Shown: positions 4,027 through 34,061, numbered from the stretch's first letter. The stretch is 42,079 bases of DNA from Candidatus Taylorbacteria bacterium RIFCSPLOWO2_02_FULL_44_35 (GCA_001822695.1 MHSF01000023.1:1257-43335); one strand, 5' to 3'. Translations and numbers: made by a program. Notes: a model not told the origin generated them from the sequence alone.

Positions 4027-5398
4027 AAAGTTTCTTTTTTATCTCACTTACAATCCGAGCGGAATTTTTGCCGTCGGTAAAACCGAAAACCTCATGCCGC
4101 AAAATGGCTCTTTCGGCCGCGTCGCATTCCGGATGAGCGAGATAATTTTTAATAGCCGGCAAAAATTCCGCGCGCTGCTCCACGATTTTAATGCCGCCGA
4201 TTTTTGAAATCAACTGATAGTGAGTAAAGTTTTTATGCCGCCGCACCGACTGATAAATCGGCCGTTGTTTATAACCGTCAAAACCGGCAACAATTACCGG
4301 CCGATCCATCAGCGCGCCATCGGGACCGACGGTGGAATAAGTGGTTACCAGTAGATCGGCGTGGCGTAAAACATTAATATAATGTTTGAACCCCGGCAAT
4401 AGCTGACAATCCTTAGCCGAATCAAAGTAAACTAACGGGTCGCCGCGAAACCGTTCGTATTTTTCTTTCTCCATAATACCGCTGGGATGCGGTCGGACAA
4501 TCAATCTGATTTTGGTGTTTAATTCTCCCGCTCTAATCCAATTCAAAATCATTTCTACCAAATCGGCGCCATCCAAAGAATAAGGGCCTTGGGAAGCGAA
4601 TAAAATCACGATTGAATCGAGCGGAAAATTTAATCGCTTCAAAAAATCCCCGCGTGATTCCCTACTGGCTTCGCCGACAAAATAATCAACGTGCGGTCCG
4701 CCCACCACTGTTACCGATTGCGGTTCGTAACTTTGGAATTTCACCGCTTCTTCTTTAACTGGCTGGGACCACACCAGCATTCGGTCGGTTTGGAAAGGAA
4801 TAAAATATTTGCTGAAATGGTCCCAATTGCCATGCATGCCGACCGTCTTAATTCCTTGTCTTTTCGCCTCCACTAAAAGTTGTAGGTCGTTAGGCCAAAT
4901 GCAAATGTTCGGCAAAAACGCCAAAGCCGGACGGTATTTCTCAAAAAGTCCTTTATAAAGCCGTTCGGGGAAAAGCCAAAGATAAATTCTTGGCGCGAAA
5001 ATTTTTTTAATCCATTTGGATTGACCGAAGGTTTTGGAAATAAAAATTTTCAACGGGTAATTCCAAAAACGCCAAAGCGGCCGGGGTTTATCGGCCCGCA
5101 CGCCATAGGAAGAAACCAATTTCGTGGTATCGGTAAAAATCAAAAAAGAAAAGAAAAAATAAAAAGCGTTTTGAATCAAATTGCGTTTGATATTTTCCTC
5201 TATTTCTTCAATTGCAATATTAGGGTGCCCGGCAAAGTCAAACGGTAATTTTGAGCCCCTTCTGACTAAAACAATTATCCTGATATTTTCATCGCGGGAA
5301 AGCAAATCCAAAACCGAGCCCCGAAAAGAGGTCAGATTACGAAAAATCGCCACATTGGACACGCTGAAAAAAACGGTCTTCACAATGCCGAATATCAT
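4019..5398 (-). CDS. putative GT-B-like sugar/glycerophosphate transferase (TagF/capsule-biosynthesis-like)
   Basis: 459 aa. C-terminal DLLVTTYSTVGPDGALMDRPVI resembles the CDP-glycerol glycerophosphotransferase / surface carbohydrate biosynthesis families. Assignment is weak. Confidence 0.4.
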   Translation of the reverse strand: MIFGIVKTVFFSVSNVAIFRNLTSFRGSVLDLLSRDENIRIIVLVRRGSKLPFDFAGHPNIAIEEIEENIKRNLIQNAFYFFFSFLIFTDTTKLVSSYGVRADKPRPLWRFWNYPLKIFISKTFGQSKWIKKIFAPRIYLWLFPERLYKGLFEKYRPALAFLPNICIWPNDLQLLVEAKRQGIKTVGMHGNWDHFSKYFIPFQTDRMLVWSQPVKEEAVKFQSYEPQSVTVVGGPHVDYFVGEASRESRGDFLKRLNFPLDSIVILFASQGPYSLDGADLVEMILNWIRAGELNTKIRLIVRPHPSGIMEKEKYERFRGDPLVYFDSAKDCQLLPGFKHYINVLRHADLLVTTYSTVGPDGALMDRPVIVAGFDGYKQRPIYQSVRRHKNFTHYQLISKIGGIKIVEQRAEFLPAIKNYLAHPECDAAERAILRHEVFGFTDGKNSARIVSEIKKKLYD

Positions 5399-13313: not shown

Positions 13314-15428
13314 TCATTTTTTCGATTCAATTTTTTCAATAATTTTTTCGGCAAACTTTGCACTATCAAAGCCAATAATTTCGCAACCTAGTTCCCGGGC
13401 CGCGCCGACATCAGTGGAAATTACCGATAGACCGGCGGCTCGCGCTTCCGCCATTGTCAAACCATAACCCTCGTACAAAGAAGTGTTCAAAAAAACATCG
13501 GCGGTTTTGTAATAAGGTGCCAAATTATCCAACCATTTTTCAAAAATAATACTATCTTGTAACTTGTAACGTATAACTTGTAACTTTAAGACACCGAGGA
13601 GGGAGCCGGAACCGACGATGACGAGACCAACATGGGGAAATTTTTTAACCACTGCCCGCCAAGCGTCAAGCAATAAGCTAAAATTTTTCTCCGGCTCCAA
13701 ACGACCGGCGGCTAAAGCGATAAAATTAAACTGGGGATATTTTTTTCGCAAATCATTTTCCGGCGAAATGGTGGTATTTTTGATTTTTTCTCCATCAATT
13801 TTTATGGGTCTAATCTCAATTTTATCTTCGGCAATTTTTAGATGGGGCTGGAGAAAATTTTTAATTCTGTTTGAAACAACCCTGATTTTATCGGCCCTGG
13901 GCAGTAAAAACTTTGCCAACTGAAAACGCAAAAAATTTAAAAATGCCAAGCGCCAGCCAAGTTTCAAGCTGGTAAAAAAAGGACTGCCAAGGTCGGTGTG
14001 AATTTGCAATTTTAGTGGAATCTTAAATTTTTTCGCCAATCGCCAACCAACTAAACCGGTTTCAAACGGGTCCTGACAGGTAATCAGACAATTTCTAATT
14101 TCTAATCCCCAATTTCTAATGACTGATTTACCGAGGCGAATGGCGTCAAAAACATAGAAAAATTTTGAAAATGAACTGGTGGGATACACAAAAACATTTT
14201 TGGAGATCTGTCCCGATTTTGCTTTGCAAAATCGAGGATCCTCGATTTTTGTAAACAAAAATCGGGAGAATTGGGAATTTTTCTTGTTGAAAATTATTAT
14301 ATGTATTTCGCCAAAAAGCTTGCCATATTCAATCATCCGCGCCTGGACGGCACTGCCCTCTTCAAAAATCTTCCTATCGGTAGAAATCATCAGAAGTTTG
14401 TCCGTCTTGCCCGTTGCGCCATTATGCAATTCAGAATAAACAGCTAAAAATTCGTTGGCAATGTCGCGCCAAGTGTGAGTCCAATTGAAATTTTCAATCT
14501 TTTGCCGGCACTGTTCGTAATTTTTTTCTTCAGCTAAATATGAAATCTTTTCGGCAATGTCATTGGTATTTTCCGGGTCCACAAAAAGACCAACATTTCT
14601 CAAGCGTTCGTAAAGTCCGGTTTCTCTGGTTAAAATAAACGGCTTATTATGACGAATGGCGTCTAAAATCAAATTGGGGCTGACATCGCCGAGTGACGCC
14701 AAAATCACGGCATAACAATGAGCCACTTTCTCCATAAATTTATCAAACGGCTTAGTAGTGTCATCATAAACAATCGCCGCGTTTTTGATTTTGGTTTTCT
14801 CAAAAGCCGCCGCCAATCGTTTGGCGTTTTTCCATTTGAGCGGCCTCGCGCCAGCGATATAATTCTTTTCCGTTGGTGGAAAAGACGGCTCTTTTTGCCC
14901 ATAATAATTTTCTACGATCGTAGTTTTCGCTTCATCAAAACCATAAACCGGCAACCAAATTTTTCTTTGCCAATCGGTGCTAAAAATCAAGCGGCTGGCG
15001 TTTCGTACCGTCCAACACGAGAGTTTGAAAACAATTCTCTCTTTTAAATTCAACTTGTCCAACCGTGTTCGGTAGAAATTTTTGAGTAGAACCAAATCGC
15101 CGGTCCGCTCCACATACCATTCCCACAAAAAATCACCACCGGTGCGGATAATAATTTTTTTGCCCAAAAATCGCGCCGCCGCCACTGCCGGCATGGCCAC
15201 GCTAAAAGTGTCCAACGCCACTACTAAATCAGATCTAGGAAAAAACAGGAAGCAACGCAAGAAAAACCAAATATGGCGAACCACCATTGGCAAATTTTTC
15301 TCCAATTGATAAGTCAAAATTTTAACGTTGTGTCCTTGCGCCTCAAATTCCACCTTCAAATTTTTGGCGTATTGGGCCGGTCCTCCGATTTCCGGCGGGT
15401 ATATGCCCGTAGCGATAACGATTTTCAT
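13314..15428 (-). CDS. double GT-B glycosyltransferase (two GT4-like modules fused)
   Basis: 704 aa. N-terminus MKIVIATGIYPPEIGGPAQY. Second module begins KLLMISTDRKIFEEGS... and has a C-terminal YEGYGLTMAEARAAGLSVIST motif. Confidence 0.7.
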   Translation of the reverse strand: MKIVIATGIYPPEIGGPAQYAKNLKVEFEAQGHNVKILTYQLEKNLPMVVRHIWFFLRCFLFFPRSDLVVALDTFSVAMPAVAAARFLGKKIIIRTGGDFLWEWYVERTGDLVLLKNFYRTRLDKLNLKERIVFKLSCWTVRNASRLIFSTDWQRKIWLPVYGFDEAKTTIVENYYGQKEPSFPPTEKNYIAGARPLKWKNAKRLAAAFEKTKIKNAAIVYDDTTKPFDKFMEKVAHCYAVILASLGDVSPNLILDAIRHNKPFILTRETGLYERLRNVGLFVDPENTNDIAEKISYLAEEKNYEQCRQKIENFNWTHTWRDIANEFLAVYSELHNGATGKTDKLLMISTDRKIFEEGSAVQARMIEYGKLFGEIHIIIFNKKNSQFSRFLFTKIEDPRFCKAKSGQISKNVFVYPTSSFSKFFYVFDAIRLGKSVIRNWGLEIRNCLITCQDPFETGLVGWRLAKKFKIPLKLQIHTDLGSPFFTSLKLGWRLAFLNFLRFQLAKFLLPRADKIRVVSNRIKNFLQPHLKIAEDKIEIRPIKIDGEKIKNTTISPENDLRKKYPQFNFIALAAGRLEPEKNFSLLLDAWRAVVKKFPHVGLVIVGSGSLLGVLKLQVIRYKLQDSIIFEKWLDNLAPYYKTADVFLNTSLYEGYGLTMAEARAAGLSVISTDVGAARELGCEIIGFDSAKFAEKIIEKIESKK
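13556..13588. repeat. degenerate copy of the AACTTGT heptamer array
   Basis: cttgt aacttgt aacgtat aacttgt aacttta, located within CDS 13314-15428. Confidence 0.85.
14091..14118. repeat. heptanucleotide array ATTTCTA (x3 plus one divergent unit) inside a CDS
   Basis: atttcta atttcta atcccca atttcta. Confidence 0.85.
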
Positions 15429-15478: not shown

Positions 15479-17224
15479 TTACATTTTTTCCGGTGCCTGA
15501 ATACCCAATAACCAAAGGCCGTTTTTTAAAACGATGGAAACGGCGCGGGTTAAGGCAAGACGATAATTCTCTTCTTTAGAATTAATAATTTGATTGTGGG
15601 CGTAAAAATTATTGAAAGCGCTGGCTAATTCAATAAGATAAGTGGCGACATAATGCGGTTCGTATTCCGCCGCCGCCCGCGCCGCCACTTCCGGAAAGCG
15701 ATAAAGTGACCGTTCTAAAATCTTCGGACTCAAAGGTTCAACCTTGGAGAATTTTTTTTGGGTCTTTAAAGGTTGAACCTTTATTTCTTCGGTTTTTGCT
15801 AACACCGACCTCGCCCGAGCGTAGGTGTATTGCAAATACGACCCCGAATCGCCTTTAAAAGAAATGGATTTTTCAAAATCGTAAATAATATCGGCACCGA
15901 TATTCTGCTTCAAAATGGAATACTTAATTGCGCCGACGCTAACTTGTTCGGCAATTTTTTGCTTCTCTATCGCCGGTAAATCTCGCTCCGCCACTTTTTC
16001 CGCCACTAAATTCTCCACCGTGCTAATCAGCGACTCACCGGTAACGACATTGCCTAACCGCGACGACATTTTGCCGGAAGCGAACCGCAGCAGACCGTGG
16101 GAAATATGCTTTGTCTTTTCTGCAATCACCGGCATCACCTCCTCCATCGCTTTGAGTACTACCTTGAAATAGTCGCTCTGCTCGTTGGCGGTAACAATAA
16201 CTGACTGGTTTATATCCGGCTCTTTTTCAAACTTCGCTCTGTTTAGCCCAAGCTCCTTGGCCTCGTAGGTTGGGAGTCCTTGTGAAGTGATAAAAACTCT
16301 GGTGTGCAGCCCAAATTTTTCTCCTCGGAAGATAACGGCGTTTTCGCTTTTCTCAAACACCCCCTTCTTCAAAAACTCGGCGACAATTTTCTCGCCCTCA
16401 CGCCCTTCTTGGCTCTCAAAAAAGTAGTAATCAAACTTCGTGCCAAGCTTTTTATAGATTTCCTCAAAGTGCGCCAAACTTATCTTCCGCCCTTCTTCGT
16501 AGAGTTTGTTCACTTCCGGGTCTGACTTTTCAAAAATTTTCTTATTCAAATCATCAATTTCTATCTTGGCTTCGGGGTCTTTTTCATAAGCGGCCGATCC
16601 CATAACATAAGCTTGCCCCAACAGAGCAACGGCATCATTTTGAAAATTGAAAATTGAAAATTGAAAATTGTTCTTCAAAACTCCCCAAATCGCCTTCGCC
16701 ACATGAAGTCCGACATCGCCTTGCCAACAGGCGCGGACTACTTTCGCGCCGGAAAATTCAATAAGCCGCGCGATTGATTCGCCGACGGCGTTGCTCATTA
16801 AGTGGCCAATATGAAATTCCTTGAACGGATTAGGGTTGGTGTATTCCACCATCACCTTTTTGCCAGCGAGCGTTTGGTTTTTGCTGAAATTTTCGCCTTG
16901 GGCGAAAATTTCAGCCAGCGAGTCGGCAAAAAATCTCGACGACAGGTAAAAATTTATGAACCCTGCACCCGCGATTTCTGTCCTTTCTAAAAAGGCGAAA
17001 CCCCGCCACGGCGGGGTTTCGCCTTTATTCTTAATCTCCGCAACAATCTTTTCCGCCACCTCTCTCGGCTTCATCTTGAGTTCTTTGGCATACACCAACG
17101 CCACATTTGTAGAATAATCCCCATGCGCCAAATCCGCCGGGTGTTCAAGCAAGATTCCCCTCGCTTCAATATCTAAATTCTTTAATGCCCCCTTAATTAA
17201 ATCTGTGAGCTTTTCCTGAATCAT
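15479..17224 (-). CDS. argS: arginine--tRNA ligase
   Basis: 581 aa. HIGH-type FHIGHLMSNAVGESIARL, an N-terminal Arg_tRNA_synt_N-like region, YLQYTYARARSVL, and a C-terminal ...GIQAPEKM typical of ArgRS. Confidence 0.95.
   Translation of the reverse strand: MIQEKLTDLIKGALKNLDIEARGILLEHPADLAHGDYSTNVALVYAKELKMKPREVAEKIVAEIKNKGETPPWRGFAFLERTEIAGAGFINFYLSSRFFADSLAEIFAQGENFSKNQTLAGKKVMVEYTNPNPFKEFHIGHLMSNAVGESIARLIEFSGAKVVRACWQGDVGLHVAKAIWGVLKNNFQFSIFNFQNDAVALLGQAYVMGSAAYEKDPEAKIEIDDLNKKIFEKSDPEVNKLYEEGRKISLAHFEEIYKKLGTKFDYYFFESQEGREGEKIVAEFLKKGVFEKSENAVIFRGEKFGLHTRVFITSQGLPTYEAKELGLNRAKFEKEPDINQSVIVTANEQSDYFKVVLKAMEEVMPVIAEKTKHISHGLLRFASGKMSSRLGNVVTGESLISTVENLVAEKVAERDLPAIEKQKIAEQVSVGAIKYSILKQNIGADIIYDFEKSISFKGDSGSYLQYTYARARSVLAKTEEIKVQPLKTQKKFSKVEPLSPKILERSLYRFPEVAARAAAEYEPHYVATYLIELASAFNNFYAHNQIINSKEENYRLALTRAVSIVLKNGLWLLGIQAPEKM
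16640..16670. repeat. tandem heptanucleotide repeat (TTGAAAA) x4.4 inside argS
   Basis: ttgaaaa x4 then ttg. Encodes NNFQFSIFNFQN on the minus strand. Confidence 0.95.
16991..17026. repeat. 36-nt perfect palindrome inside argS (terminator-like)
   Basis: AAAGGCGAAACCCCGCC ac GGCGGGGTTTCGCCTTT. In frame, encoding ..KGETPPWRGFAF.. Confidence 0.95.
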
Positions 17225-17233
17225 AAAACCATT

Positions 17234-18247
17234 TTAGCACACAATCTGTTTTGCTCCCCAGAAATCAAGGATGGTTTCCGTTAATTGATAACAATTTCCA
17301 CACTTCAAAAGCCCGAGGTAAGAAGTGATTGATTCCTGTTTCGGATTTTCTACCAAACGCTTAAACATTCTTCTTTTTGTTGTCATCCGCAAAACTCGGT
17401 GGTTGGGAAAATGAACCCAACCCAAAAAATCCGCGCCCGAAGCAACAGTTTTGATAAAGATTTTATCAATATTAATTTCCAGTTTTAGTGTGTCCCGCAA
17501 AAAGTTTTTCATTTGGAACAAAATTTCCTCAAGCCAAGTCCTACTTTCCGAAAAAACAACAAAATCATCGGCGTAGCGGATGTAAAATTTCGCTTTTATC
17601 TTATGCTTCATAAATTGGTCAAATTCGTTAAGGTAAATGTTGGCGAATAATTGCGAAGTTAAATTGCCGAGTGGCAAACCTCTTCCGTAAAAACCAGCGG
17701 TGTAAAAACTGTTGATGATTTCAGCGAGAAGTTGAATAATTTCTTCATCAAAAATTCGCTTGCGTAAAATTCGCAATAAGATTCCGTGGTCAATATTGGC
17801 AAAAAACTTCCTGATGTCGCATTTCAAAACCCAACAGGATTTTGTATTGTTTTTGCTAACTTTCCAGACAAATGTACGAAAACGATTGATAGCTTTGTGA
17901 GTTCCTTTTTCGTTTCGGCAGGAAAAAGAATCGGCAATGAAAGTTTGGTCAAAAAATGGATAAAGTTTTCGATATACGGCTCGATGAAGCAAGCGGTCGC
18001 GAACACTTGCCTTGTGAATATTTCTTGGCTTCGGGTCAGAAATTCTGAAAGCTCGGTAACTACCGTGGCGATAGGTTTTTGCTCGCAAATCATTATGAAG
18101 CGAAATGACATTATCCATCAGACGCAAACTAAATTCCTGCACATCCAGCTTTTTTCTTTTTCCTTTCACAAATTCTCTCCAAGCGCCGAGCAAGTCTTCC
18201 AAAGAAATGATATCCTCGTAGCTATGGTTGAATTGAATCCCACTCAT
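17234..18247 (-). CDS. DGR reverse transcriptase (intact)
   Basis: LPLGNLTSQLFANIYLNEFD (DGR-diagnostic [IL]G.LTSQ motif), YADDFVVF catalytic box, and an N-terminal LLGAWREFVKGKRKK..PKPRNIHKASVRDRLLHRAV. Collinear with Bordetella phage Brt as recalled. The ATG at 18247 (MSGIQF) is preferred over 18322, which would overlap avd. Confidence 0.93.
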   Translation of the reverse strand: MSGIQFNHSYEDIISLEDLLGAWREFVKGKRKKLDVQEFSLRLMDNVISLHNDLRAKTYRHGSYRAFRISDPKPRNIHKASVRDRLLHRAVYRKLYPFFDQTFIADSFSCRNEKGTHKAINRFRTFVWKVSKNNTKSCWVLKCDIRKFFANIDHGILLRILRKRIFDEEIIQLLAEIINSFYTAGFYGRGLPLGNLTSQLFANIYLNEFDQFMKHKIKAKFYIRYADDFVVFSESRTWLEEILFQMKNFLRDTLKLEINIDKIFIKTVASGADFLGWVHFPNHRVLRMTTKRRMFKRLVENPKQESITSYLGLLKCGNCYQLTETILDFWGAKQIVC

Positions 18248-18277
18248 TCTATAAAGGTTACCCCCCCCCAACGCTTT
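18248..18277. promoter_or_regulatory. 30-bp RT/avd divergent spacer containing a C9 homopolymer (18261-18269)
   Basis: tctataaaggttaCCCCCCCCCaacgcttt lies between the RT ATG and the avd TTG. The paralogous spacer at 20629-20657 carries C8. Confidence 0.4.
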
Positions 18278-18661
18278 TTGCCAGTGGTGGAGAAACTTAA
18301 ACAAGGATATTTTCTTTGGCACCAGTGCCTTGAACTTTTGCCAAAGACCCAGAAATATTCCATTGGTAATCGTATAGATAAACTTTTGATTGAAAGTATT
18401 GAAGCCGCGGTAACTGCCACCTTTTTGCCAAAAGAGGAAAAACTGCCGTGGCTGCGATTAGCTATAAGAAAATTGGATACAGCAAAAGTTCTCCTTATGA
18501 TTGTGTGGGAAACAAAATCTTTGGATGATAAAAAAATCGTCGGGCTTTCAGAAATTTTAAATGATGCCGGTAAAATGCTCGGCGGTTGGAATGGCCAACT
18601 ACAAAAATACTTAAGAGAAAACTCCCCCAGAATTGCCCGAGGGCAAACGGGGGAGAAATGA
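18278..18661 (+). CDS. avd: Avd-like accessory variability determinant (four-helix-bundle protein), copy 1, TTG start
   Basis: LPKTQKYSIGNRID...KLDTAKVLL..WETKSLDDKK...LGGW. The same pattern appears in copy 2 at roughly half identical residues by eye. Only the 3' 384 nt of ORF 17786-18661 is used. Confidence 0.85.
   Translation: MPVVEKLKQGYFLWHQCLELLPKTQKYSIGNRIDKLLIESIEAAVTATFLPKEEKLPWLRLAIRKLDTAKVLLMIVWETKSLDDKKIVGLSEILNDAGKMLGGWNGQLQKYLRENSPRIARGQTGEK
18622..18655 (-). terminator. hairpin plus U-run immediately 3' of TR1, embedded in the avd1 3' end
   Basis: CTCCCCC...GGGGGAG outer stem with inner TTGCCC/GGGCAA. The minus-strand reading is followed by a T-run. The structure, but not the sequence, is conserved in cassette 2. 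Confidence 0.5.
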
Positions 18662-18667
18662 AGAGAG

Positions 18668-18793
18668 TTGCGACACGGCAAACGCAAACCCATTCTCATG
18701 ATTCCACTTGTTGTCGGGGTTGTCGTAGTAAGCGTTAAGCCACTGACCATTGTCGTTACGATTCGCGCTGAGCAGATTCGGGTCGCCGTCAGA
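18668..18793 (-). repeat. DGR template repeat TR1
   Basis: 126 nt. Asn-codon-rich (AAT/AAC) in the minus-strand sense. Aligns to 19122-19250 with 13 mismatches at TR adenines. Confidence 0.85.
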
Positions 18794-18857
18794 AATGTGC
18801 AGAATGCCTCCCATTTCACCACCCCTTGAATACTCTCGGGGTTGTATCGCATTCGGC

Positions 18858-18885
18858 ATCACAATGCCTTAGTATCTTGCACCAA
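18858..18885 (-). promoter_or_regulatory. candidate TR1 promoter (TTGGTG-16 nt-TGTGAT)
   Basis: Both hexamers and the spacing are conserved with cassette 2 (TTGGTG-16-TATGAT at 21225-21252). Confidence 0.35.
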
Positions 18886-19021
18886 GTATCTTCATTTTTT
18901 TTATTTTACGCGTGTCACTCCGTTTGAATTCTTAAACACAAACGCTCTCAACGCGCGGATACTGGATTCGGCGGAAAGAAACCATAGTCCCTTTCGGATT
19001 GGCCTACTACCGTGGCTTAGT

Positions 19022-19058
19022 ATACAAAAACTCTCGCCTGCTTGACACGGGCGAGAGT
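19022..19058 (-). terminator. intrinsic terminator of target gene 1
   Basis: ACTCTCGCC / GGCGAGAGT 9-bp stem followed by TTTTTG on the minus strand. Confidence 0.65.
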
Positions 19059-19121
19059 GTGAAAAAACTTAAGTCAAGGGACAGAGGGCTAGCGCAAAGG
19101 GTCCTAGGACTTAGCTCTAAC

Positions 19122-19250
19122 TTGCGACACGGCAAACGCAAACCCACTCCCATGATTCCACTAGTTGTCGGGGCGGAAGTCGTCGTCCGCGTCAAGCCAC
19201 TGACCAGTGCCGCCACGACTCGCGCTGAGCAGACGCGGGTCGCCGTCAGA
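19122..19250 (-). repeat. DGR variable repeat VR1
   Basis: Adenine-poor counterpart of TR1, lying at the 3' end of the 19104-19730 reading frame. Confidence 0.85.
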
Positions 19251-19730
19251 GTCGTGCACGGGTTCGTGCATGGCAACGATCCAGATCAGCCCCATGGCTG
19301 CGATCTCCTTGTCCGTGAACTTCTCACGGATGAGGCAGACCAGTTCGGCGTTCGGCTTCGAGAGCTTGCGCTTGTCGGCCTCGGCGCGAATCTTCTTCGT
19401 GATCCGATCGTTGTCCTCGAAGAGCATGCCCTTGAGAACGGCGACTTCAGTCGTCATGCCATTGGTCGGCTTGAAGTCCGGCGAACGGAGCACCTGCTTG
19501 GCGTAGTTTCTGACGCGGAAACAGTTGCCTTCCAGACGCTTGATCCAGTCTTCGCCGGTCGTGCCGTCGGAGGTGACACTGAAGTAGATGACACCGTCTT
19601 CCTCGAGCCACGAACGGGTCGGTTCCGAAACCGAGAGTTCATTGCGGAGAAAACGGTCAACCCCTTCCTCCCCGCCGAGTTTGTTCCAGACCGCTTCCAC
19701 GCGGCCGAGGGTAATATCGGGATATTTCAT
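19161..19730 (-). CDS. DGR target protein 1 (C-terminal VR), currently truncated by an in-frame TAG inside VR1
   Basis: Protein-like 189-aa ORF. The frame continues for 18 more codons to 19104 after the TAG at 19161-19163. Full length would be 208 aa, identical to target 2. Confidence 0.8.
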   Translation of the reverse strand: MKYPDITLGRVEAVWNKLGGEEGVDRFLRNELSVSEPTRSWLEEDGVIYFSVTSDGTTGEDWIKRLEGNCFRVRNYAKQVLRSPDFKPTNGMTTEVAVLKGMLFEDNDRITKKIRAEADKRKLSKPNAELVCLIREKFTDKEIAAMGLIWIVAMHEPVHDSDGDPRLLSASRGGTGQWLDADDDFRPDN

Positions 19731-19918
19731 AATATAATTGCCTTTCGTTCAACTGCTAGTTGTGGTTTATTCACCTCTTCCAGAAGTGAATGCTAGGCCG
19801 TTGTGGTCATAGCCAGAAATCCCCAGAAAAGGTGAGGGACTTTTGGCTATGACCGCGGCAAGATTTCAAGGTTCATTGAATTATGGATTATTCTAACAAA
19901 CACCGCCCCAAATTTCTG
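19731..19918 (-). promoter_or_regulatory. structured 5' leader of target gene 1
   Basis: 11-bp stem GGTCATAGCCA/TGGCTATGACC (19805-19815 / 19844-19854), plus the TGAACCTTGAAA box shared with the other target leaders. Confidence 0.4.
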
Positions 19919-20029
19919 CCCGAAATACTACCATAATTGCGCCATAAAAGTCAAGCAAAAATACGAAATATGGCTTTAAATAAAGGTATCTTGGCAAGGG
20001 GAAAATACATAAATAAAAAGGAAGCCGCG
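19916..20029. repeat. 114-bp duplicated promoter module (copy 1)
   Basis: Near-identical to 22238-22351. The first ~68 nt are identical by eye. Confidence 0.85.
19925..19954 (-). promoter_or_regulatory. target-gene promoter (TTGACT-18 nt-TAGTAT)
   Basis: Lies within a 114-bp module near-identical to 22238-22351. A third target-like gene has TTGACA-17-TAGCAT at the equivalent place. Confidence 0.6.
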
Positions 20030-20117
20030 GGCCGCCTGATACGAGGGCTCGCAGCGGACTTCTGCTTCTAACGGGGTCAATAACCAGGTGGGTAACTATC
20101 ATCTTGAAAATTCACTC

Positions 20118-20628
20118 CTAACCATGTTCAAAAATTCGCTTGCGTAAAATTCGTAATAAGATTCCGTGGTCAATACTGGCAAAGAATTTTCTGATGTCGT
20201 ATTTCAAAATCCAGCAGGTCTTGGTGTTGTTTTTGCTGACTTTCCAAACAAATCTACGAAAACGGTTGATGGTTTTGTGAGTTCCCTTTTCGTTTCGGCA
20301 GGAAAAAGAATCGGCAATAAATGTCTGGTCAAAGAATGGGTAAAGTTTTCGGTAAACAGCACGATGAAGTAAGCGGTTGCGAGCACTTGCTTTGTGTATG
20401 TTTCTTGGCTTCGGGTCAGAAATTCTGAAAGCTCGGTAACCTACCGTGGCGATAGGTTTTTGCTCGCAAATCATTATGAAGCGAAATGACATTATCCATC
20501 AGACGCAAACTAAATTCCTGCACATCCAGCTTTTTTCTTTTTCCTTTCACGAATTCTTGCCAAGCGCCGAGCAAATTTTCTGAAGAAATGATATCCTCGT
20601 AACTATGGTTGAATTGAATCCCATTCAT
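20118..20628 (-). pseudogene. DGR reverse transcriptase stub (N-terminal ~170 codons, frameshifted, no catalytic motifs)
   Basis: About 90% nt identity to 17747-18247. One extra C near 20440 splits it into ORFs 20118-20492 and 20416-20724. Homology stops at 20128, so the LTSQ and YADD motifs are absent. Confidence 0.9.
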
Positions 20629-20657
20629 TCTATAAAGGTTACCCCCCCCAACGCTTT

Positions 20658-21020
20658 TTGCCAGTGGTGGAAAAAACTTTATCGGCATACAAACTCTGGC
20701 AGGAAATATTGAAACTTTTTCCAAAAACGACGCGCTATTCTCTAGGTATAAAGATTGATGTTCTTTTCATTGAAATTTTTGAGTCAATTTCGACCGCGGC
20801 ATTTGCCGCCAAAACTGAAAAATCACCTTGGGTTCGGCGGGCAATAATAAAACTAGATACTTTAAAAGGTCTGCTACGGATAGCGTGGGAAATCAAATCA
20901 CTGGATAACAAGAAATATATCACCTTATCAGAACAACTTTCTGAAATCGGCCGCCAGCTTGGCGGTTGGCATAATCAGATTATAAAACAAAACTCTCCCG
21001 CAAAAGCGGGAGAGAAATGA
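20658..21020 (+). CDS. avd: Avd-like accessory variability determinant, copy 2, TTG start
   Basis: 120 aa. FPKTTRYSLGIKID...KLDTLKGLL..WEIKSLDNKK...LGGW. Confidence 0.85.
   Translation: MPVVEKTLSAYKLWQEILKLFPKTTRYSLGIKIDVLFIEIFESISTAAFAAKTEKSPWVRRAIIKLDTLKGLLRIAWEIKSLDNKKYITLSEQLSEIGRQLGGWHNQIIKQNSPAKAGEK
20993..21014 (-). terminator. hairpin plus U-run immediately 3' of TR2, embedded in the avd2 3' end
   Basis: CTCTCCCGC aaaa GCGGGAGAG, a perfect 9-bp stem. The minus-strand reading is followed by TTTTGTTTTAT. Confidence 0.55.
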
Positions 21021-21024
21021 GGAT

Positions 21025-21158
21025 ACTGGCGGGCAGACCGCCGAAGGGTTGTAGTCGTTCCAATCGTTGTCAAGCCAGTTGTAATTCCAGTGCCACTTGC
21101 CATCATTCCAGTACAGATACAACACATAACGGTTACCGTTCGGATTACGAAGAATCGT
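21025..21158 (-). repeat. DGR template repeat TR2
   Basis: 134 nt, rich in AAC/AAT/TAT codons. Aligns without gaps to 21484-21617 (offset 459). Confidence 0.9.
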
Positions 21159-21224
21159 ATAAAGTGTCTTCTGTTCCACCACCCCTCGAAGCTTTCGCGA
21201 TCTTGGGATTGAATCGTATTCGGC

Positions 21225-21252
21225 ATCATAATGCCCTAACACTTTACACCAA
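21225..21252 (-). promoter_or_regulatory. candidate TR2 promoter (TTGGTG-16 nt-TATGAT)
   Basis: Conserved with 18858-18885. Confidence 0.35.
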
Positions 21253-21395
21253 GTAACTTCATTTTTTGAAGTGTCTTCATACACCACTCTATCCAAAACC
21301 TTAGTTGTGGATACTCACGATGTATGGATACTGGATTCGGTAGCGGAAAACCGTAATCTCCCGCGTATTCACCTACTGCCGCAGATAATTTTAGC

Positions 21396-21427
21396 ATAAA
21401 AAAGACCCCGCGTTCGAAAACACGGGG
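21396..21427 (-). terminator. intrinsic terminator of target gene 2
   Basis: CCCCGUG/CGCGGGG stem (one G-U pair) followed by UCUUUUUUAUG on the minus strand. Confidence 0.65.
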
Positions 21428-21467
21428 CCGAGAACTAAATTCAAAGGATTCAAAAGACCTAAACGAC

Positions 21468-22094
21468 CTAGTTCTGAGGACTAACTTGCGGGCAGACCGC
21501 CGAAGGGTAGTAGTCGTACCAAGCGCGGTCAAGCCAGCGGTAATACCAGTGCCACTCGCCACCAGACCAGTCCAGAGACAACACAGAACGGTTACCGTAC
21601 GGACTACGAAGAATTGTGCCGTCAAAGAAAATATAGGTCGTATTGTCATTCGTCTTTTTCTTCCAACTTTCTGGAATAAGAGTTTTATCATTCCAGAGAG
21701 TCTCGAAAACCTTGGCGTTCAGACAAATGTGGCCCGCTTTCTTGAGACGCTTCAGCTTCTCCTCCCCGTTGATACTGATCTCATCTTTTTTGAGCATCGT
21801 CTCAAGACGAATTTTGCTGAAATCCACCTCTGTGAGAGCGAGCGACCGCTTGTCTTCCTCGTCTATGGTCCAACCACTACCGATAAACTCGGCGGGGTTG
21901 AAAGGGGTGGTGCGGTCGACGATGACCAGAATTCCAGCTTTCTGACTAAAGTGTTTGACCAAGTCGGACCAGAGGGGGTGGTCGGATGACTCGATGATAG
22001 ACTGAATTTCCTCCCCGTCTGCCTTCATTGCGCCAAGCTTTTCAGCGACAAGTTTCCCCATCTCAAACTGCTGACCGATTGTAATTATGTTCAT
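21468..22094 (-). CDS. DGR target protein 2 (C-terminal VR)
   Basis: 208 aa from the ATG at 22094 (MNIITIG). VR2 ends 13 nt before the stop codon. The N-terminal SSDHPLWSDLVKHFSQK motif is shared with the 28547-29189 paralogue. Confidence 0.85.
   Translation of the reverse strand: MNIITIGQQFEMGKLVAEKLGAMKADGEEIQSIIESSDHPLWSDLVKHFSQKAGILVIVDRTTPFNPAEFIGSGWTIDEEDKRSLALTEVDFSKIRLETMLKKDEISINGEEKLKRLKKAGHICLNAKVFETLWNDKTLIPESWKKKTNDNTTYIFFDGTILRSPYGNRSVLSLDWSGGEWHWYYRWLDRAWYDYYPSAVCPQVSPQN
21484..21617 (-). repeat. DGR variable repeat VR2
   Basis: 16 of 17 internal mismatches to TR2 are at TR adenines (hand alignment). Confidence 0.9.
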
Positions 22095-22240
22095 TCGTTG
22101 AAACCGCAATAACGGCGGACCGTGTCATCTCGTAGCGAGAGCTTATCGGCTGATCGTTAGTTGCGGAAAACAAACCATTTCATCAAAAAAACGGGTTGTA
22201 TTCCGCAACCAATTAAGCACTTTCAAAGTTCATTTAACTG
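22095..22240 (-). promoter_or_regulatory. structured 5' leader of target gene 2
   Basis: GTTGCGGAA...TTCCGCAAC hairpin (22160-22209), a conserved TCAGCCGATAAG box, and a third TTGCGG segment (22104-22109) next to the start codon. The same layout is seen at 29190-29337. Confidence 0.45.
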
Positions 22241-22351
22241 CCCGAAATACTACCATAATTGCGCCATAAAAGTCAAGCAAAAATACGAAATATGGCTTTA
22301 AATAAGGATATTTAGCAATAGAGAAATGCGTAAATAAAAGAGGAAGCCGCG
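22238..22351. repeat. 114-bp duplicated promoter module (copy 2)
   Basis: See 19916-20029. Confidence 0.85.
22247..22276 (-). promoter_or_regulatory. target-gene promoter (TTGACT-18 nt-TAGTAT), copy 2
   Basis: Identical to 19925-19954. Confidence 0.6.
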
Positions 22352-22557
22352 TTCTCATTCCTTAAATCCCGAAGGAAGTGGAAGAGAATCGCGGCTTTGT
22401 CGCCCCAGGGCGTTCCCCGATAAGAATCGGGGTATAAGGAGAGTTTTACCTCTCCTGCGCTGGTGGGACCAGCACTACCTGGTCTGAGCCAGGCGTCTAC
22501 CAGTCCCCCTTTGCCTTATGTTTGTCATGGGGGAACAGTTTTAAATCCTACGCCGGT
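22352..22557. other. hairpin-dense, GC-enriched non-coding segment downstream of tmk
   Basis: At least six consecutive local stems: AAGCCGCG..CGCGGCTT, CCCCGAT/ATCGGGG, AGGAGAG/CTCTCCT, GCTGGT/ACCAGC, CCTGG/CCAGG and CCCCC/GGGGG. Confidence 0.3.
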
Positions 22558-23181
22558 CTAATTTCTTGTCAAATCGGAAATTATTTTCAGGAAGTCATTC
22601 CTAACTTTGTCAATATTTTGATTGGCGTCAATTATTTTATGCGGCACATTTTTGGAAAACTCAAGAAAACCAGAGTGAACCCGTTTGTGAAAAGCCAGTT
22701 TGCGCTCGTCAAAATGGGTTTTCTTTACTCTCCGCAAAGCAACGCGCGCCAAGCCGATTTCTGGTTTGACATCAAAGAAAATGTAAAAATCCGGAGCTGC
22801 CTCTCGCAAATAAATTTCCCGCGTTTGCCAAAACAAATCCTTTAAATTCCGCGCGCCTTGGGCGCAAATTTGGTAAGCGTAAGTAGAAGAATCAAAACGA
22901 TCACAAATAACATTTTTGCCTCTTGCCAAAGCCGGTAAAATTTTATGCTGCAAATGGTCAGCCCGGGCCGCCCACATAAGACCGAATTGCGTTTCCGCTC
23001 CGGATTCTTTCGCCTCTTTTGACAAAACCAGCGTCCGAATTTTGTCGGCAAATTCCGTCCCGCCTGGTTCGTAGGTAAGCAAAAACTTTTTTCCAAACGA
23101 CGTTTCAGCAAACCATTTCAAAATCGCGGTCTTCCCGCTCCCCTCACCGCCGTCAACAACTATAAATTTTCCCCGTTTCAT
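22558..23181 (-). CDS. tmk: dTMP (thymidylate) kinase
   Basis: [15 protein letters not shown]-loop, about 207 aa, DRF/ YAYQ-type motifs. Confidence 0.9.
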
Positions 23182-28546: not shown

Positions 28547-29189
28547 TCAAAGGATCCCAAGAAAGTTGCGGAGGAAAAACCGGTCAACAACACCCCACCC
28601 GCCGGCGCCAAACGAGGCCAGGCCGACAGGCCACCTCCTACCAACCCGGCGCACATCGACAACCGAGACGCTTCCGTTTTTGTTTTCCACAAAGAAGGAG
28701 TTGTTCCAACCATCGGTCCGAAGACCAACATCCTCTCCGCTTTCTTGGCGCTCAATGAGCGCCTCAATGGCAGGAAGTGAGGTGTAGCTGCGTTCCTTTG
28801 GGAGTTTTGGAAAAGGTAAGGATACTCTCGGCCACTTGCTTGAAGGTCGCGATCCCCGTCAGCTCGTAGATCTCGAACTGACTCGCATCCTGGGCGGACT
28901 GGTTTGTGGGCAGAAACTTGTCCAAGTCAGCGTCGCGGTAGTAATACCGCGTTTGGTTCGTGAAGCAGTCGGCGGTGGGTTTGGCTTCCGTCGCCGGAAC
29001 CGCCACCACTTTGCCGATAGAACGGAGGACGGATTTGATTTTCTGGCCGAAGTGTTTGACCAGATCGGACCAGAAGGGATGTTCAGATGATCGAAGCGCT
29101 CCTTTCAGGGCTTCCGCGTCATCATTCCGAGGAAACCGACGGGCAATCTGCGCCACAAGTTCGGCAAACATTTCGGGGGTAGTATTCAT
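28547..29189 (-). pseudogene. third DGR-target-like paralogue, split by a +1 frameshift
   Basis: N-terminal frame 28764-29189 shares SSEHPFWSDLVKHFGQK with target 2. A second open frame (28547-28858) encodes ..DGWNNSFFVENKNGSVSVVDVRRVGRRWPVGLASFGAGGWGVVDRFF... Combined length of ~213 aa matches the 208-aa targets. Confidence 0.6.
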
Positions 29190-29337
29190 TTTTTGTTAGC
29201 CGCAACAAAACGCGTATACCGTGTGCCTCGATGTGAGACCTTATCGGCTGACATTTAGTTGCGGAACACGAACTATTTCATTAAGAAACAGGCCATATTC
29301 CGCAACCAATAACTCAATTTCAAGGTTCAAAATTACT
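29190..29337 (-). promoter_or_regulatory. structured 5' leader homologous to the target-2 leader
   Basis: GTTGCGGAA/TTCCGCAAC hairpin (29258-29306), a TCAGCCGATAAG box, and a TTGCGG segment at 29200-29205. Confidence 0.45.
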
Positions 29338-30289: not shown

Positions 30290-32152
30290 ATGACACGCGA
30301 TATTTCTCCAAAAAAATCTTCACTCAAAAAACGGCCGCTGGCCGTCGCGGCTTGCGACGGCCAACCATTTATTTTTTACCAACTGCTGACCGAGCAAGAA
30401 TCGTTGCTTTGTTTCGCCGGCAGTCGCGACGGCGTCGATTTCGGTAATGTCTGCGAAAAAGTGGTTTTAACGAATTTCAAAAAATCGCCGTTGGAAGCGA
30501 AAAATTGTCACGATTTCAAAATTTCCAAAAAGCGCGGCGGCTGGTTTTTAACTTATGTCGAGAAAACCAATAAAGGTTTGGTTGCTCGCGCTGCCGAATC
30601 CACCGATTTAAAGAGGTGGAAAGAAATTGAAACCGATAAAATTCCCGAGTCCGGTTATTTGGTACCAAACTTCAAATGGCAAGGCAAAAATGTTTTTTAC
30701 TACGGCAGCCAAGCTATTCGTGTCGCCTACTCCAGGGATTTAAAAACTTGGGAAACCAGCAGGGCGGTCGCTTTGTCGCCGCGCAGTGGTTTCTTTGACA
30801 ATGGCCCGCTAACCGTCTTGGCGGTGGAGAAAGAAGCTGGCGGTATTTATGTCATCTACGACGCCTCTTTCGCCAAAAACGAAAGCTACCAGCTCCAAAT
30901 CGGCGCCGCGGTTTTTTCCTTGAACGATCCCGAGCAAATGATTTGGCGCAGTGAATGGCCGCTATTTGAGCAAAATTTCGTAGCTGGCGCCAAGAAAAAA
31001 TCGGCGGCGCTCGGTGGTGTTTTCCTTAAAGACCGGATTGATCTCTATTGGTGGTTTGGCGACCAAGGTTTGTTGACTATTACTTTGCCCCGTTTTCCTA
31101 TCATTGGAAAAATAACCGGGACCAAGGGCGGTTTGGTCAGAAAAGCCGAAAATCCGATCATTGCTCCGGACGATAAAAATCATTGGGAAAGCGAAGCGAC
31201 TTTTAATCCGGCGGCACTTTATGAAGGTGGCAGGGTTCATCTGCTCTACCGCGCGGTGGGTCATAACAGCGTTTCTTCAATTGGCCATGTCGCTTCCACC
31301 AATGGCGTAAATTTTTTGGAGCGCGAGCCCGAGCCGGCTTATCGGCCAAGAGAAAAATTTGAAGGCGTTCGCGCCGGTAGCCGACCAATTACCAACCGGC
31401 CTTTCTTCGCTTACGCGTCCGGTGGAGGCGGCAACGGCGGTTGCGAGGACCCGCGACTTACTTTAATCGACAATACGGTTTATATGATTTACACCGCCTT
31501 TGACGGTTGGGGCTCAGTGCGACTGGCATTATCCTCAATTAGATTGGCGGACTTCAAAAATCAGCGCTGGCATTGGAAAAAGCCGATTCTAATCTCGCCG
31601 CCCGGACAAATTCACAAGAACTGGGTGTTGTTTCCGGAAAAAATTAACGGCAAATTTGTTTTGCTCAACAGTGTTTCACCCGTGATTTCTATCAGTTATC
31701 TTGATGATTTGAATTTCAAAAGCGGCGAATTTATTGAAAGTCGATTCGGCGGGACCGGCCGGACATACACTTGGGACAATTTAATACGTGGCGCCGGACC
31801 ACCGCCGATTAAAACGCCTTACGGCTGGCTTTTACTTTATCACGCCATGGATTATCGTGATTGCAACCGCTACAAAATCGGCGCGATGATTTTGGACGAA
31901 AAAGACCCGACCCAAGTTTTATATCGTTCCCGCCGGCCGATTTTAGAACCGGACATGCCCTACGAAAATGAAGGTTTCAAAACCGGCGTGGTTTATTCCT
32001 GCGGCGCGGCGGTTAAGGACGGCGAATTGTTTGTTTATTACGGCGGCGCCGACAAGGTCTCCTGCGTCGCCTCGGCGCCATTTGATAAATTCTTGAATGA
32101 TTTAAGGAAGGATGCGGAAATTAAAATGGTAATGCGTAATGTAAAAATTTAA
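30290..32152 (+). CDS. GH130-like (DUF377) beta-propeller glycosidase/phosphorylase family protein
   Basis: C-terminal module has NPIIAPDD..WES.ATFNPAA...LLYRAVG...GCEDPRLTLIDNTVYMIYTAFDG. Confidence 0.6.
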   Translation: MTRDISPKKSSLKKRPLAVAACDGQPFIFYQLLTEQESLLCFAGSRDGVDFGNVCEKVVLTNFKKSPLEAKNCHDFKISKKRGGWFLTYVEKTNKGLVARAAESTDLKRWKEIETDKIPESGYLVPNFKWQGKNVFYYGSQAIRVAYSRDLKTWETSRAVALSPRSGFFDNGPLTVLAVEKEAGGIYVIYDASFAKNESYQLQIGAAVFSLNDPEQMIWRSEWPLFEQNFVAGAKKKSAALGGVFLKDRIDLYWWFGDQGLLTITLPRFPIIGKITGTKGGLVRKAENPIIAPDDKNHWESEATFNPAALYEGGRVHLLYRAVGHNSVSSIGHVASTNGVNFLEREPEPAYRPREKFEGVRAGSRPITNRPFFAYASGGGGNGGCEDPRLTLIDNTVYMIYTAFDGWGSVRLALSSIRLADFKNQRWHWKKPILISPPGQIHKNWVLFPEKINGKFVLLNSVSPVISISYLDDLNFKSGEFIESRFGGTGRTYTWDNLIRGAGPPPIKTPYGWLLLYHAMDYRDCNRYKIGAMILDEKDPTQVLYRSRRPILEPDMPYENEGFKTGVVYSCGAAVKDGELFVYYGGADKVSCVASAPFDKFLNDLRKDAEIKMVMRNVKI

Positions 32153-32165
32153 ATTAAAAATAAAA

Positions 32166-34061
32166 ATGTTCACCGTTCGCCGTTCCAAACACAATCCGAT
32201 AATCGCGCCGATTAGCGAACGCCCGTGGGAAGCGTCGGGCACTTTCAATTGCTCGGCAGTTAAAGAAGGCAAAAAGACCCTGGCGGTTTATCGCGCCCTT
32301 TCCGCCAACCACCAGGTTCCCAACTTTCCGGAAAAGCTTTCGGTCATTGGCCTTGCCGAAAGCGTCGACGATTCTCATTTTGAAAACCGTCGGCCCTTAA
32401 TCACGCCCGAAGCGCCCTGGGAACGATTCGGTTGTGAAGACCCGAGGATTACCAAACTGGGCGATACTTACTATATTTTCTACACCGCCTTGTCTGAATT
32501 CCCTTTTCGTTCAGAAGGTATCAAGACCGCGGTGGTAAAAACTAAGGACTTCAAGATTCTGGAAAGGCATCTTGTTACTCCCTTCAACGCCAAGGGCATG
32601 GCGTTATTTCCTGAAAAAATTGGCGGCAAATTGGCGGCGGTTTTTTCCGTCAATACCGACCGACCGCCGGCAAAAATCGCTTTCGCTTTCTTTGATAAAG
32701 AAACGGATATTTGGTCAACGGAGTTTTGGAATGACTGGGTAAAAAATTTAGACGAACACGCCATTGACCCGCGCCGTTCGCCGGCCGACCATGTGGAAGT
32801 CGGCGCACCGCCGATTAAAACCAAGGACGGCTGGCTGTTGCTCTACTCTCACATCCAGAATTATTTCGGCGGCGAAGCGCTATTTGGTGTTGAGGCCCTG
32901 CTTTTGGACTTGGAAAATCCGCGCCGGATTATCGGCCGAACAAAAGGCCCGTTTCTGGTGCCACAGGAAAAATACGAGACCGACGGTTATGTCAATAATA
33001 TCGTTTTCCCGTCAGGCGCGATTTTGGAAGGAGAAACGCTTAAGATTTTTTACGGCGCCGCCGACACGGTCTCAGCCACAGCCGAAGTCAAACTGGAAAA
33101 TTTATTAGCGGCGCTGAAACCAGACAATGATTTGGTCGTTCGGGTCGGCGGCGCCCCAATTCTGGAACCGCGCAAAAATTTTCCTTGGGAAGCCAAAGCC
33201 GTCTTTAATCCCGGCGCCATTGAACTTGAAGGTAAAATCCATTTGCTTTACCGCGCCCAAGCGGAAGATAATACTTCGGTCTTTGGCTACACTTCGAGTA
33301 AAGATGGTGAAAAAATTGATGAGCGTTCTGCCGAACCAGTTTATACTCCGCGACAGCCGTTTGAAATAAAAAAACAGCCGGGCAATTCCGGTTGCGAGGA
33401 CCCGCGGCTGACTTTAATTGACAACACCATTTATATGCTCTACACCGCTTTTGACGGGGTAAATTTGCCGCGTGTTGCCGCCACTTCAATTTCTGTTAAA
33501 AATTTCCTTGCGAAAGATTGGCGTTGGTGGGCCAAACCGGTGATAATCAGTCCTTTCGGCGTCGACGATAAAGACGCTTTCCTTTTTCCTAAGAAAGTTG
33601 GTAAAAATTATTTGGTTTTTCATCGTGTTGGCTTGGATATTTGTATTGACCCGATTCCTTCTTTAGATTTTACAACTGAATGTGTTAAGACCATCACCCC
33701 CATTATCTCGCCGCGCAAATTTATGTGGGATAGCGAACGAATTGGCATCAACGCGCCGGCGATCGAAAGTAAAATCGGCTGGATTGTGTTATATCACGGT
33801 ATTTCCAAAAATCATCACACTTATCGCGTCGGCGCGATTCTTTTGGACAAAAAAGACCCCACCAAAGTTTTGGCGCGAACGACCGCGCCAATTTTTGAAC
33901 CCGAAATGACTTATGAAAAAGAAGGTCTGGTGCCCAATGTTGTTTTTCCTTGCGGAGTTGTCGTCCGCAACGGCGTGATTTTTATCTACTACGGCGCCGC
34001 CGACAAAGTTATCGGCCTCGCCAAAACTAAACTCGCTGATTTGGAAAAAGTGTTTGAGTGA
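32166..34061 (+). CDS. tandem GH130-like (DUF377) two-module protein
   Basis: Two repeats of the NPII/ILEP..W.A...FN......YRA...GCEDPR[IL]T..GDTYY/DNTIYMLYTA pattern. Confidence 0.65.
   Translation: MFTVRRSKHNPIIAPISERPWEASGTFNCSAVKEGKKTLAVYRALSANHQVPNFPEKLSVIGLAESVDDSHFENRRPLITPEAPWERFGCEDPRITKLGDTYYIFYTALSEFPFRSEGIKTAVVKTKDFKILERHLVTPFNAKGMALFPEKIGGKLAAVFSVNTDRPPAKIAFAFFDKETDIWSTEFWNDWVKNLDEHAIDPRRSPADHVEVGAPPIKTKDGWLLLYSHIQNYFGGEALFGVEALLLDLENPRRIIGRTKGPFLVPQEKYETDGYVNNIVFPSGAILEGETLKIFYGAADTVSATAEVKLENLLAALKPDNDLVVRVGGAPILEPRKNFPWEAKAVFNPGAIELEGKIHLLYRAQAEDNTSVFGYTSSKDGEKIDERSAEPVYTPRQPFEIKKQPGNSGCEDPRLTLIDNTIYMLYTAFDGVNLPRVAATSISVKNFLAKDWRWWAKPVIISPFGVDDKDAFLFPKKVGKNYLVFHRVGLDICIDPIPSLDFTTECVKTITPIISPRKFMWDSERIGINAPAIESKIGWIVLYHGISKNHHTYRVGAILLDKKDPTKVLARTTAPIFEPEMTYEKEGLVPNVVFPCGVVVRNGVIFIYYGAADKVIGLAKTKLADLEKVFE

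Follow-up and report, generated by a model that had tools for sequence, protein, structure and literature searches.

A composite locus of two tandem diversity-generating retroelement cassettes in a Candidatus Taylorbacteria bacterium

The DNA analysed here, 42,079 nucleotides (nt) of Candidatus Taylorbacteria bacterium RIFCSPLOWO2_02_FULL_44_35 (GCA_001822695.1, MHSF01000023.1:1257-43335), is referred to below as the window, and all coordinates are those of this whole stretch. Between positions 17234 and 22351 it carries a diversity-generating retroelement (DGR) locus. DGRs are especially common in bacteria of the Candidate Phyla Radiation (CPR, Patescibacteria), and to our knowledge they are the only prokaryotic system of targeted protein hypermutation. 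Two cassettes lie there in tandem, both read on the minus strand and with an identical order of parts: promoter and leader, a target gene with a variable repeat (VR) at its C-terminal end, a terminator, a template repeat (TR), a divergent avd gene on the plus strand and a reverse transcriptase (RT) gene (Table 1). Unit 2, which adjoins tmk, is composed of the leader, target 2, VR2, the terminator, a spacer, TR2, avd2 and an RT fragment, and unit 1, which adjoins argS, of the leader, target 1, VR1, a spacer, TR1, avd1 and RT1. The locus is bounded by argS on one side and by tmk/glyA on the other, as the initial annotation had placed it, and no integrase, phage or transposase gene is present among the open reading frames (ORFs) of the window, again in agreement with that annotation; the tested ORFs are all cellular. 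This is a genuine chromosomal, cellular DGR of a Candidatus Taylorbacteria-type CPR bacterium, and its description as such (an intact RT beside a stub, a pair of avd genes, and two TR/VR pairs that are unrelated to each other, with the parts of both units in one and the same order) was correct throughout; the target length of 208 amino acids (aa) given for both cassettes holds for target 2 but not for target 1, which has 189 aa here. The kind of DGR is already known and the composite double locus is the unusual part. On balance we judge it probable that two cassettes of the CPR architecture called B3 were joined here by a recent recombination, the first of them diversifying and the second most likely frozen, or orphaned.

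Table 1. Features of the double DGR locus, ordered by position in the window.
Feature	Position	Strand	Remarks
RT1, intact DGR RT, 337 aa from ATG	17234-18247	-	ORF open upstream to GTG at 18322; Pfam RVT_1 7e-28
Poly-G tract G9	18261-18269	-	within the 30 nt between RT1 ATG and avd1 TTG start
avd1	18278-18661	+	divergent from RT1; NCBIfam DivGenRetAVD 1.5e-12, Pfam bAvd 1.5e-7; TTG start read from sequence
Terminator-like hairpin and U-tract directly 3′ of TR1	18610-18667	-	stem 18643->18624, z=-4.6; overlaps avd1 stop codon in antisense
TR1	18668-18800	-	paired with VR1; no variation across assemblies
Structured RNA element, three helices, directly 5′ of TR1	18795-18895	-	covariance model R1, 96.1 bits; covariation
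Target 1 terminator (likely), hairpin and U-run	19030-19056	-	fold of 19030-19135
VR1	19122-19257	-	in-frame TAG at 19161-19163, 3-nt insertion, three T>G changes
Target 1 ORF, 189 aa	19161-19730	-	cut by VR1 stop; full-length alleles 207 aa, would end near 19104
Leader/promoter of target 1	19916-20029	-	90% identical to 22238-22351; promoter-like TTGACT-18-TAGTAT, 19954->19925
tmk 3′ remnant, foreign allele, last ~12 codons	20095-20133	-	EFLNMVRSEFSR followed by two stops; fused to RT2 stub at 8-nt microhomology ATTTTTGA
RT2 stub, N-terminal ~167 codons	~20128-20628	-	1-nt frameshift (insertion); no catalytic YADD half
Poly-G tract G8	20642-20649	-	between stub ATG and avd2 start
avd2, intact, 120 aa	20658-21020	+	NCBIfam DivGenRetAVD 5.7e-18 (65 bits), Pfam bAvd 1.9e-12 (48 bits)
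Terminator-like hairpin directly 3′ of TR2	20993-21014	-	CTCTCCCGC-TTTT-GCGGGAGAG and TTTTGTTTT
TR2	21025-21160	-	paired with VR2
Structured RNA element directly 5′ of TR2	21155-21262	-	covariance model R1, 94.6 bits; ten of ten P1 pairs intact
Target 2 terminator, strong, intrinsic (predicted)	21404-21429	-	
VR2	21484-21619	-	same in every assembly of this allele
Target 2 ORF, 208 aa	21468-22094	-	AlphaFold2 model, pLDDT 85
Leader/promoter of target 2	22238-22351	-	promoter-like TTGACT-18-TAGTAT, 22276->22247

Recomputation of the two repeat alignments gave a significant adenine bias in both. In pair 1, 14 of the 19 substitutions are at TR adenines (35 adenines in 133 nt; hypergeometric P=3.5e-6), and in pair 2 the proportion is 17 of 21 (P=4e-9), the core mismatches of TR2/VR2 being 17 at A against a single T>G. 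The earlier statement that mismatches fall almost only at adenines is therefore fair for the second pair and somewhat generous for the first. In each TR, 31-33 adenines are spread over 21-22 codons, mostly of the form AAY, with a single stop-prone codon (AAG). Both VRs make up the last ~45 codons of their target ORFs, on the same strand as the TR sense. On the 3′ side, TR and VR run through the same GC-rich sequence and then diverge at a fixed point, after ..GCAA, where the TR continues with CTCT and the VR with GTTAG, and this holds clade-wide. Folding predicts structures downstream of the VRs, where a DGR would have its homing signals, the initiation of mutagenic homing sequences (IMH/IMH*) and a hairpin.

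Public assemblies contain traces of the activity of cassette 1. The cluster of target 1 proteins at 90% identity comprises at least five alleles, which are identical over residues 1-163 and whose differences are confined to the VR. Contig L097 belongs to the strain of the window, to which it is 99.7% identical along 6.8 kb, and within VR1 the two differ only at 19150-19188; every mismatch between the L097 VR1 and TR1 is at an adenine, and TR1 is invariant in all assemblies. The combination of at least five VR1 alleles with an invariant TR1 leads to the conclusion that cassette 1, which is complete, is demonstrably diversifying in the natural population. The dominant allele of target 1 is the truncated one of the window, found in 16 contigs. 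The protein is cut to 189 aa because the TR codon AAG became TAG in VR1, so that the window allele has knocked out its own target 1 via the sole stop-prone codon of the TR. The locus is an example of a DGR that has inactivated its own target in this way. A further contig, L096, was rejected as a VR1 allele: it diverges from residue ~90 onward and lies in a different context.

The second cassette gave another picture. About 22 contigs share one and the same VR2 of the window allele, and the protein database has no variant VR2 cluster between 100% and 81% identity. Were VR2 as variable as VR1 (4 of 20 contigs), the probability of observing no variant in 22 would be ~0.007, a value calculated on contigs that are not independent. 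A metagenome scan with a 30-nt tag taken just upstream of VR2 yielded no matches, and a second metagenome tag recovered only a third, single-cassette strain and no extra VR2 alleles of the window strain. Two sister strains, S2 (contigs L098, L099, L103, L106 and L108) and S3 (L110 and L111), carry a single cassette of the target 2 type with a full RT of 357 aa at the same tmk-argS site, and in S2, with its own full RT, at least four VR2 alleles occur on an invariant background. The polymorphism at adenine sites beside invariant TRs, which was to be expected in both VRs from the initial annotation, is therefore found for VR1 in public assemblies, while VR2 is monomorphic in the assemblies of this strain and polymorphic in S2. 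Since VR2 is monomorphic despite the existence of several VR1 alleles, we propose, with moderate confidence, that cassette 2 has probably been frozen since the loss of its RT. The window TR2 and the S2-type TR2 differ at four positions other than adenines, each of which is mirrored in the cognate VR2, and this tracking of its own TR by VR2 is direct evidence of TR-to-VR copying in the target 2 cassette type. No new principle is involved. The same cassette type can be compared in one population with its own RT (VR polymorphic) and with a neighbour's RT (VR monomorphic), a natural experiment that bears on the use of foreign template RNAs by DGR RTs.

About 100 nt upstream of every TR in the clade are 75-88% conserved, although the RTs are just 60% identical. 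This 5′ element is predicted to form 19 pairs in three helices, with 92.9% of cells paired and 322 compensatory cells; sliding the partners lowers these values to 39-47% and 42-79. None of 500 shuffles matched the observed pairing, compensatory cells, pair types or covariation score, and 19 of the 500 reached the observed number of pairs changed on both sides. A covariance model of the element finds exactly two copies in the window and scores nine loci outside its training set at 81-100 bits. On the other side of the TR, 63 of 65 loci have, by direct count, a hairpin and then a T-tract, which lie antisense over the end of avd; this count was used because RNAalifold gave no structure for the 3′ flanks, where loops of variable length broke the alignment. 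Neither the 5′ element nor the 3′ hairpin was matched in Rfam. Neither RNA structure flanking the TR nor loci with two TRs are mentioned by Wu et al. 2018 (PMC5758913), and, within a limited search of the literature, the conserved structure flanking the TR may be new. A covarying RNA element beside every TR offers a handle for the biochemistry of template choice by CPR DGR RTs.

With these elements, the following mechanism can be proposed. Each cassette would express its target gene from its own promoter and up to its own terminator. As the sequence suggests, the TR RNA would be an independent small transcript consisting of scaffold, TR and 3′ hairpin, and this composite RNA would be recognised by RT and Avd. 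The later steps are drawn from the DGR of Bordetella phage BPP-1, the mechanistic prototype for the replacement of a VR by adenine-mutagenised complementary DNA (cDNA): RT and Avd would copy the TR RNA into cDNA with misincorporation opposite adenines, and the mutagenised cDNA would take the place of the VR in the 3′-terminal part of the target gene, up to the divergence point of the TR and VR flanks.

Several points weigh against the reading of the locus as one diversifying and one frozen cassette: (i) the invariance of VR2 was established on consensus assemblies, many of them re-assembled from the same aquifer samples, in which minor variants are rarely assembled; (ii) the cis elements of cassette 2 and avd2 are all intact; (iii) RT1 is ~90% identical to the lost RT2, and the RNA elements are conserved across RTs of 60% identity; (iv) two hybrid contigs, L093 and L094, cannot date the last homing of VR2; (v) no promoter was identified for the TR RNA; and (vi) no confident fold was obtained for either target with AlphaFold2 models, nor with Foldseek for target 2. 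The intact cis elements, the similarity of RT1 and RT2 and the conserved RNA elements make service in trans biochemically plausible, although in the favoured reading RT1 most likely serves cassette 2 rarely or not at all. L093 and L094 combine the window strain with a single-cassette sister, with switch points in or near TR2/avd2, and may be real recombinants or chimeric assemblies; as evidence on service in trans they were set aside, each being a hybrid of two co-occurring strains and possibly chimeric.

The most serious alternative is that both cassettes are functional, RT1 binding both TR RNAs with Avd1 or Avd2 through the common 5′ element and 3′ hairpin and diversifying two unrelated targets. 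Both TRs possess full-scoring 5′ elements (Table 1) and 3′ hairpins, the avd2 ORF is intact, target 2 retains promoter and terminator, the RT1 and RT2 lineages are close, and components of the Bordetella DGR act in trans (PMC5758913). The clean adenine pattern of the TR2/VR2 core, which would also fit this alternative, is equally explained by a recent truncation of RT2, and the monomorphism of VR2 in ~22 contigs stands against at least five VR1 alleles in the same strain and at least four VR2 alleles in S2. We therefore regard two working cassettes as unlikely, though with enough in their favour to be taken seriously. A bolder proposal, to which we give a similarly low degree of belief, is that in this clade the TR is an autonomous and swappable small-RNA gene (5′ scaffold, TR and 3′ hairpin), that modules of target, TR and avd pass from strain to strain through recombination in the conserved flanks (RT and leader), that RT1 is loaded with two template RNAs and diversifies both targets, and that the scaffold is an undescribed class of RNA that defines template recognition. 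If this were true, the scaffold would sit on the side of the TR opposite to the element of the Bordetella phage. The RNA needed for priming in BPP-1, reportedly described by Handa and colleagues in 2018, is said to lie 3′ of the TR, in the spacer between TR and brt, whereas here a large structured element is found 5′ of the TR and the 3′ side has a short terminator-like hairpin.

To return to a composite locus with a frozen second cassette, its origin can be read from the junction between the two units. The 5.6-kb double structure is 100% identical across samples, assemblers and submitters and is contiguous in at least 10 independent assemblies, its sources including the NCBI metagenome-assembled genomes (MAGs) GCA_001822705.1 and GCA_001820965.1, a JGI contig, and ENA megahit and scaffold assemblies. 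The remnant of tmk fused to the RT2 stub (EFLNMVRSEFSR with its stops) is of the S2/S3 type and unlike the window's own tmk, and the S3 intergenic region aligns to positions 20143-19866 of the window. In a three-way comparison of RT1, the stub and the S2 RT, 15 synonymous and 7 non-synonymous changes were assigned to the stub branch, against 16/6 and 24/13 on the branches of functional RTs and an expectation of ~1:3.8 for a pseudogene. As the ratio of the stub branch is like those of the functional branches, the stub must have functioned as an RT during almost the whole of the 8.5% divergence that separates it from RT1, and these counts indicate that it was under purifying selection until recently. 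This ratio, together with the tmk remnant, the microhomology and the sister strains, points to a recent microhomology-mediated join. In this scenario cassette 2 (target 2, TR2 and avd2) would be the older resident of the site; microhomology-mediated recombination would have joined the middle of RT2 to the 3′ end of tmk on a different allele of this locus, the one bearing cassette 1, and RT2 would have lost its catalytic half in that join. The locus is a recent product of recombination and not a designed double system. The leaders of the two cassettes are ~90% alike and show no conservation in other loci of the clade, and a simple old tandem duplication was ruled out by this lack of conservation, by the purifying selection on the stub and by the foreign tmk remnant.

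We also considered that the tandem arrangement could be an assembly artefact, in which two single-cassette strains had been collapsed or joined at their shared RT sequence. It is true that single samples contain related strains whose cassettes differ, that the hybrids L093 and L094 exist, and that a chimeric VR/TR ORF was assembled from one run; nevertheless the identical 5.6-kb structure was recovered from different samples, assemblers and submitters, and its junction is a unique join of RT to tmk remnant, outside any repeat, which makes an artefact very improbable. The chimeric ORF in question, P0247 (assembly of SRR3989344), begins as VR1 and runs into TR1 and downstream sequence, and probably results from an assembly join across the repeat.

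The hallmarks of a DGR RT announced for the ORF at 17234-18247 are present in RT1, namely LGNLTSQLFANIY and YADDFVV, where LGNLTSQ is a motif of the I/LGxxxSQ type and YADD corresponds to YxDD. Its top match among solved structures is the DGR RT of the Bordetella phage, 8ub7 (E=1.4e-42, residues 34-336), with a group II intron RT at 2e-22, so that RT1 groups with the DGR RT and not with group II introns or retrons. NCBIfam contains no DGR-RT model, and its top model for RT1 is the group II intron RT/maturase TIGR04416; RT1 remains far below every cut-off of the group II, retron, Drt and AbiA models, and no Rfam intron or retron RNA was matched within 17100-22700 at E<=1. The view that this is an RT of some other retroelement class (group II intron, retron or defence RT), and that the repeats arose by ordinary duplication, can be dismissed as practically negligible, given that the 152 bits of this best-scoring model compare with a cut-off of 300, that the DGR RT structure wins by 20 orders of magnitude, and that the mismatches are adenine-specific, an avd gene is adjacent and TR and VR co-vary. 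The exact RT1 protein is present on 12 public contigs; its relatives, ~60% identical, come almost only from MAGs of Patescibacteria/Parcubacteria, and IMG/VR gives just two moderately close RTs. The RT2 stub is 89-96% identical to nucleotides 17748-18268 of RT1 and stops before motifs 4-7.

Both avd genes score below the NCBIfam cut-off for DivGenRetAVD (80 bits), and of the two only avd2, with 48 bits, exceeds the Pfam bAvd cut-off of 40 bits, the score of avd1 being 32.3 bits. Avd1 and Avd2 share 50% identity, and no PDB match was obtained for their products at sequence level. The poly-G tract at 18261-18269 is read as G8, G9 or G10 among otherwise identical assemblies; these length differences may reflect either noise in the sequencing or phase variation, by slipped strands, in the expression of RT/avd.

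Comparison with relatives was made on 80 related loci. In every one with enough upstream flank, avd diverges from the start of the RT gene, and the target is found further upstream, on the same strand as the RT; 64 of the 80 have an adenine-biased TR/VR pair at the same place, with the end of the TR a few bases from the avd stop and the VR 360-570 nt upstream. The first survey of CPR/Patescibacteria DGRs was reportedly that of Paul and colleagues in 2017. The layout TR-(avd)-RT is architecture B3, to which 90% of the DGRs in CPR bacteria belong (Wu et al. 2018, PMC5758913), so the opposite-strand position of avd stressed in the initial annotation, while real, is standard and not special to this locus. 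DGR clade 2 is restricted to Patescibacteria, is cellular and has targets without recognisable domains (Roux et al. 2021, PMC8144416). The present locus is like these B3 and clade 2 DGRs in gene order, avd orientation and TR position, in its targets of ~200 aa without recognisable domains and in being cellular and without phage genes, and it is unlike its B3 relatives in having two tandem cassettes, one intact RT and a stub fused to a tmk remnant. No second avd or RT stub was found in any of the 80 related loci, and a second TR/VR pair exists among them only in L002. This pair (L002:3774-6630; TR 5049-5169, VR 4690-4810, 22 of 29 substitutions at A) has no avd, RT stub, 5′ RNA element or 3′ hairpin and adjoins a duplicated 3′ end of ligA; judged by these features, it seems to have arisen through a similar accident and to have decayed further.

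DGRs with several or remote targets, for example in Treponema and Legionella, represent ~15% of DGRs (Wu et al. 2018, PMC5758913). As here, a single RT goes with more than one protein, but those systems use one TR for several homologous VRs, whereas in the window two unrelated TRs each have their own VR, avd and RNA scaffold. The DGR of BPP-1 (mtd-avd-TR-brt; structures 8ub7-8ube) resembles the present one by its homologous RT with an IGxxxSQ-type motif, its accessory protein Avd, adenine-specific mutagenesis, the position of the VR at the target C-terminus, and TR and VR 3′ ends that are identical and GC-rich and then diverge. It differs in being phage-borne, the locus described here being cellular with avd on the opposite strand; nor is the fold of the targets here demonstrably that of a C-type lectin.

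The two target proteins are unrelated in sequence, and neither contains a Pfam or NCBIfam domain. Both families are large and found only in Patescibacteria (the target 1 family has at least 1657 clusters, that of target 2 at least 290), and both reappear as DGR targets in other loci of the clade. In MAGs of Candidatus Taylorbacteria that come from the Rifle aquifer, a target 2 allele carries an annotation. For the model of target 2, the top PDB match by Foldseek had E=0.2, with several weak matches of C-type-lectin-like character (TM <=0.49), and the model of target 1 (pLDDT 56) was too poor for a fold search. In contig L096 (12076-12200), in a different context, a core resembling a hammerhead ribozyme (CTGATGAGTCCGAAAGGACGAAAC) lies downstream of a target-1-like gene.

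An ORF of 141 aa at 28764-29189 on the minus strand shares the N-terminal motif of target 2, SS(E/D)HP(F/L)WSDLVKHF, and the 100 nt that precede it (29227-29329) are 79% identical to 22129-22232. On these similarities, it looks like a non-diversified paralog of the N-terminal part of target 2 with a related leader. An imperfect 24-nt inverted repeat is located at 22157-22212, shortly before the start codon of target 2 in its 5′ leader.

Beyond the locus, the genes of the window include argS, tmk, glyA, thyA, DHFR, a dCMP deaminase, ScpA and MurJ, along with GH130 paralogs, many glycosyltransferases, NeuB and a radical SAM protein. The two GH130 (mannoside phosphorylase-like) paralogs are in tandem at 30290-32152 and 32166-34061 and keep residual nucleotide similarity (31878-32071 against 33829-34022). 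In a glycosyltransferase gene, positions 13454-13517 show 8 substitutions in 64 nt relative to the near-identical contig L097, likely a short recombination tract.

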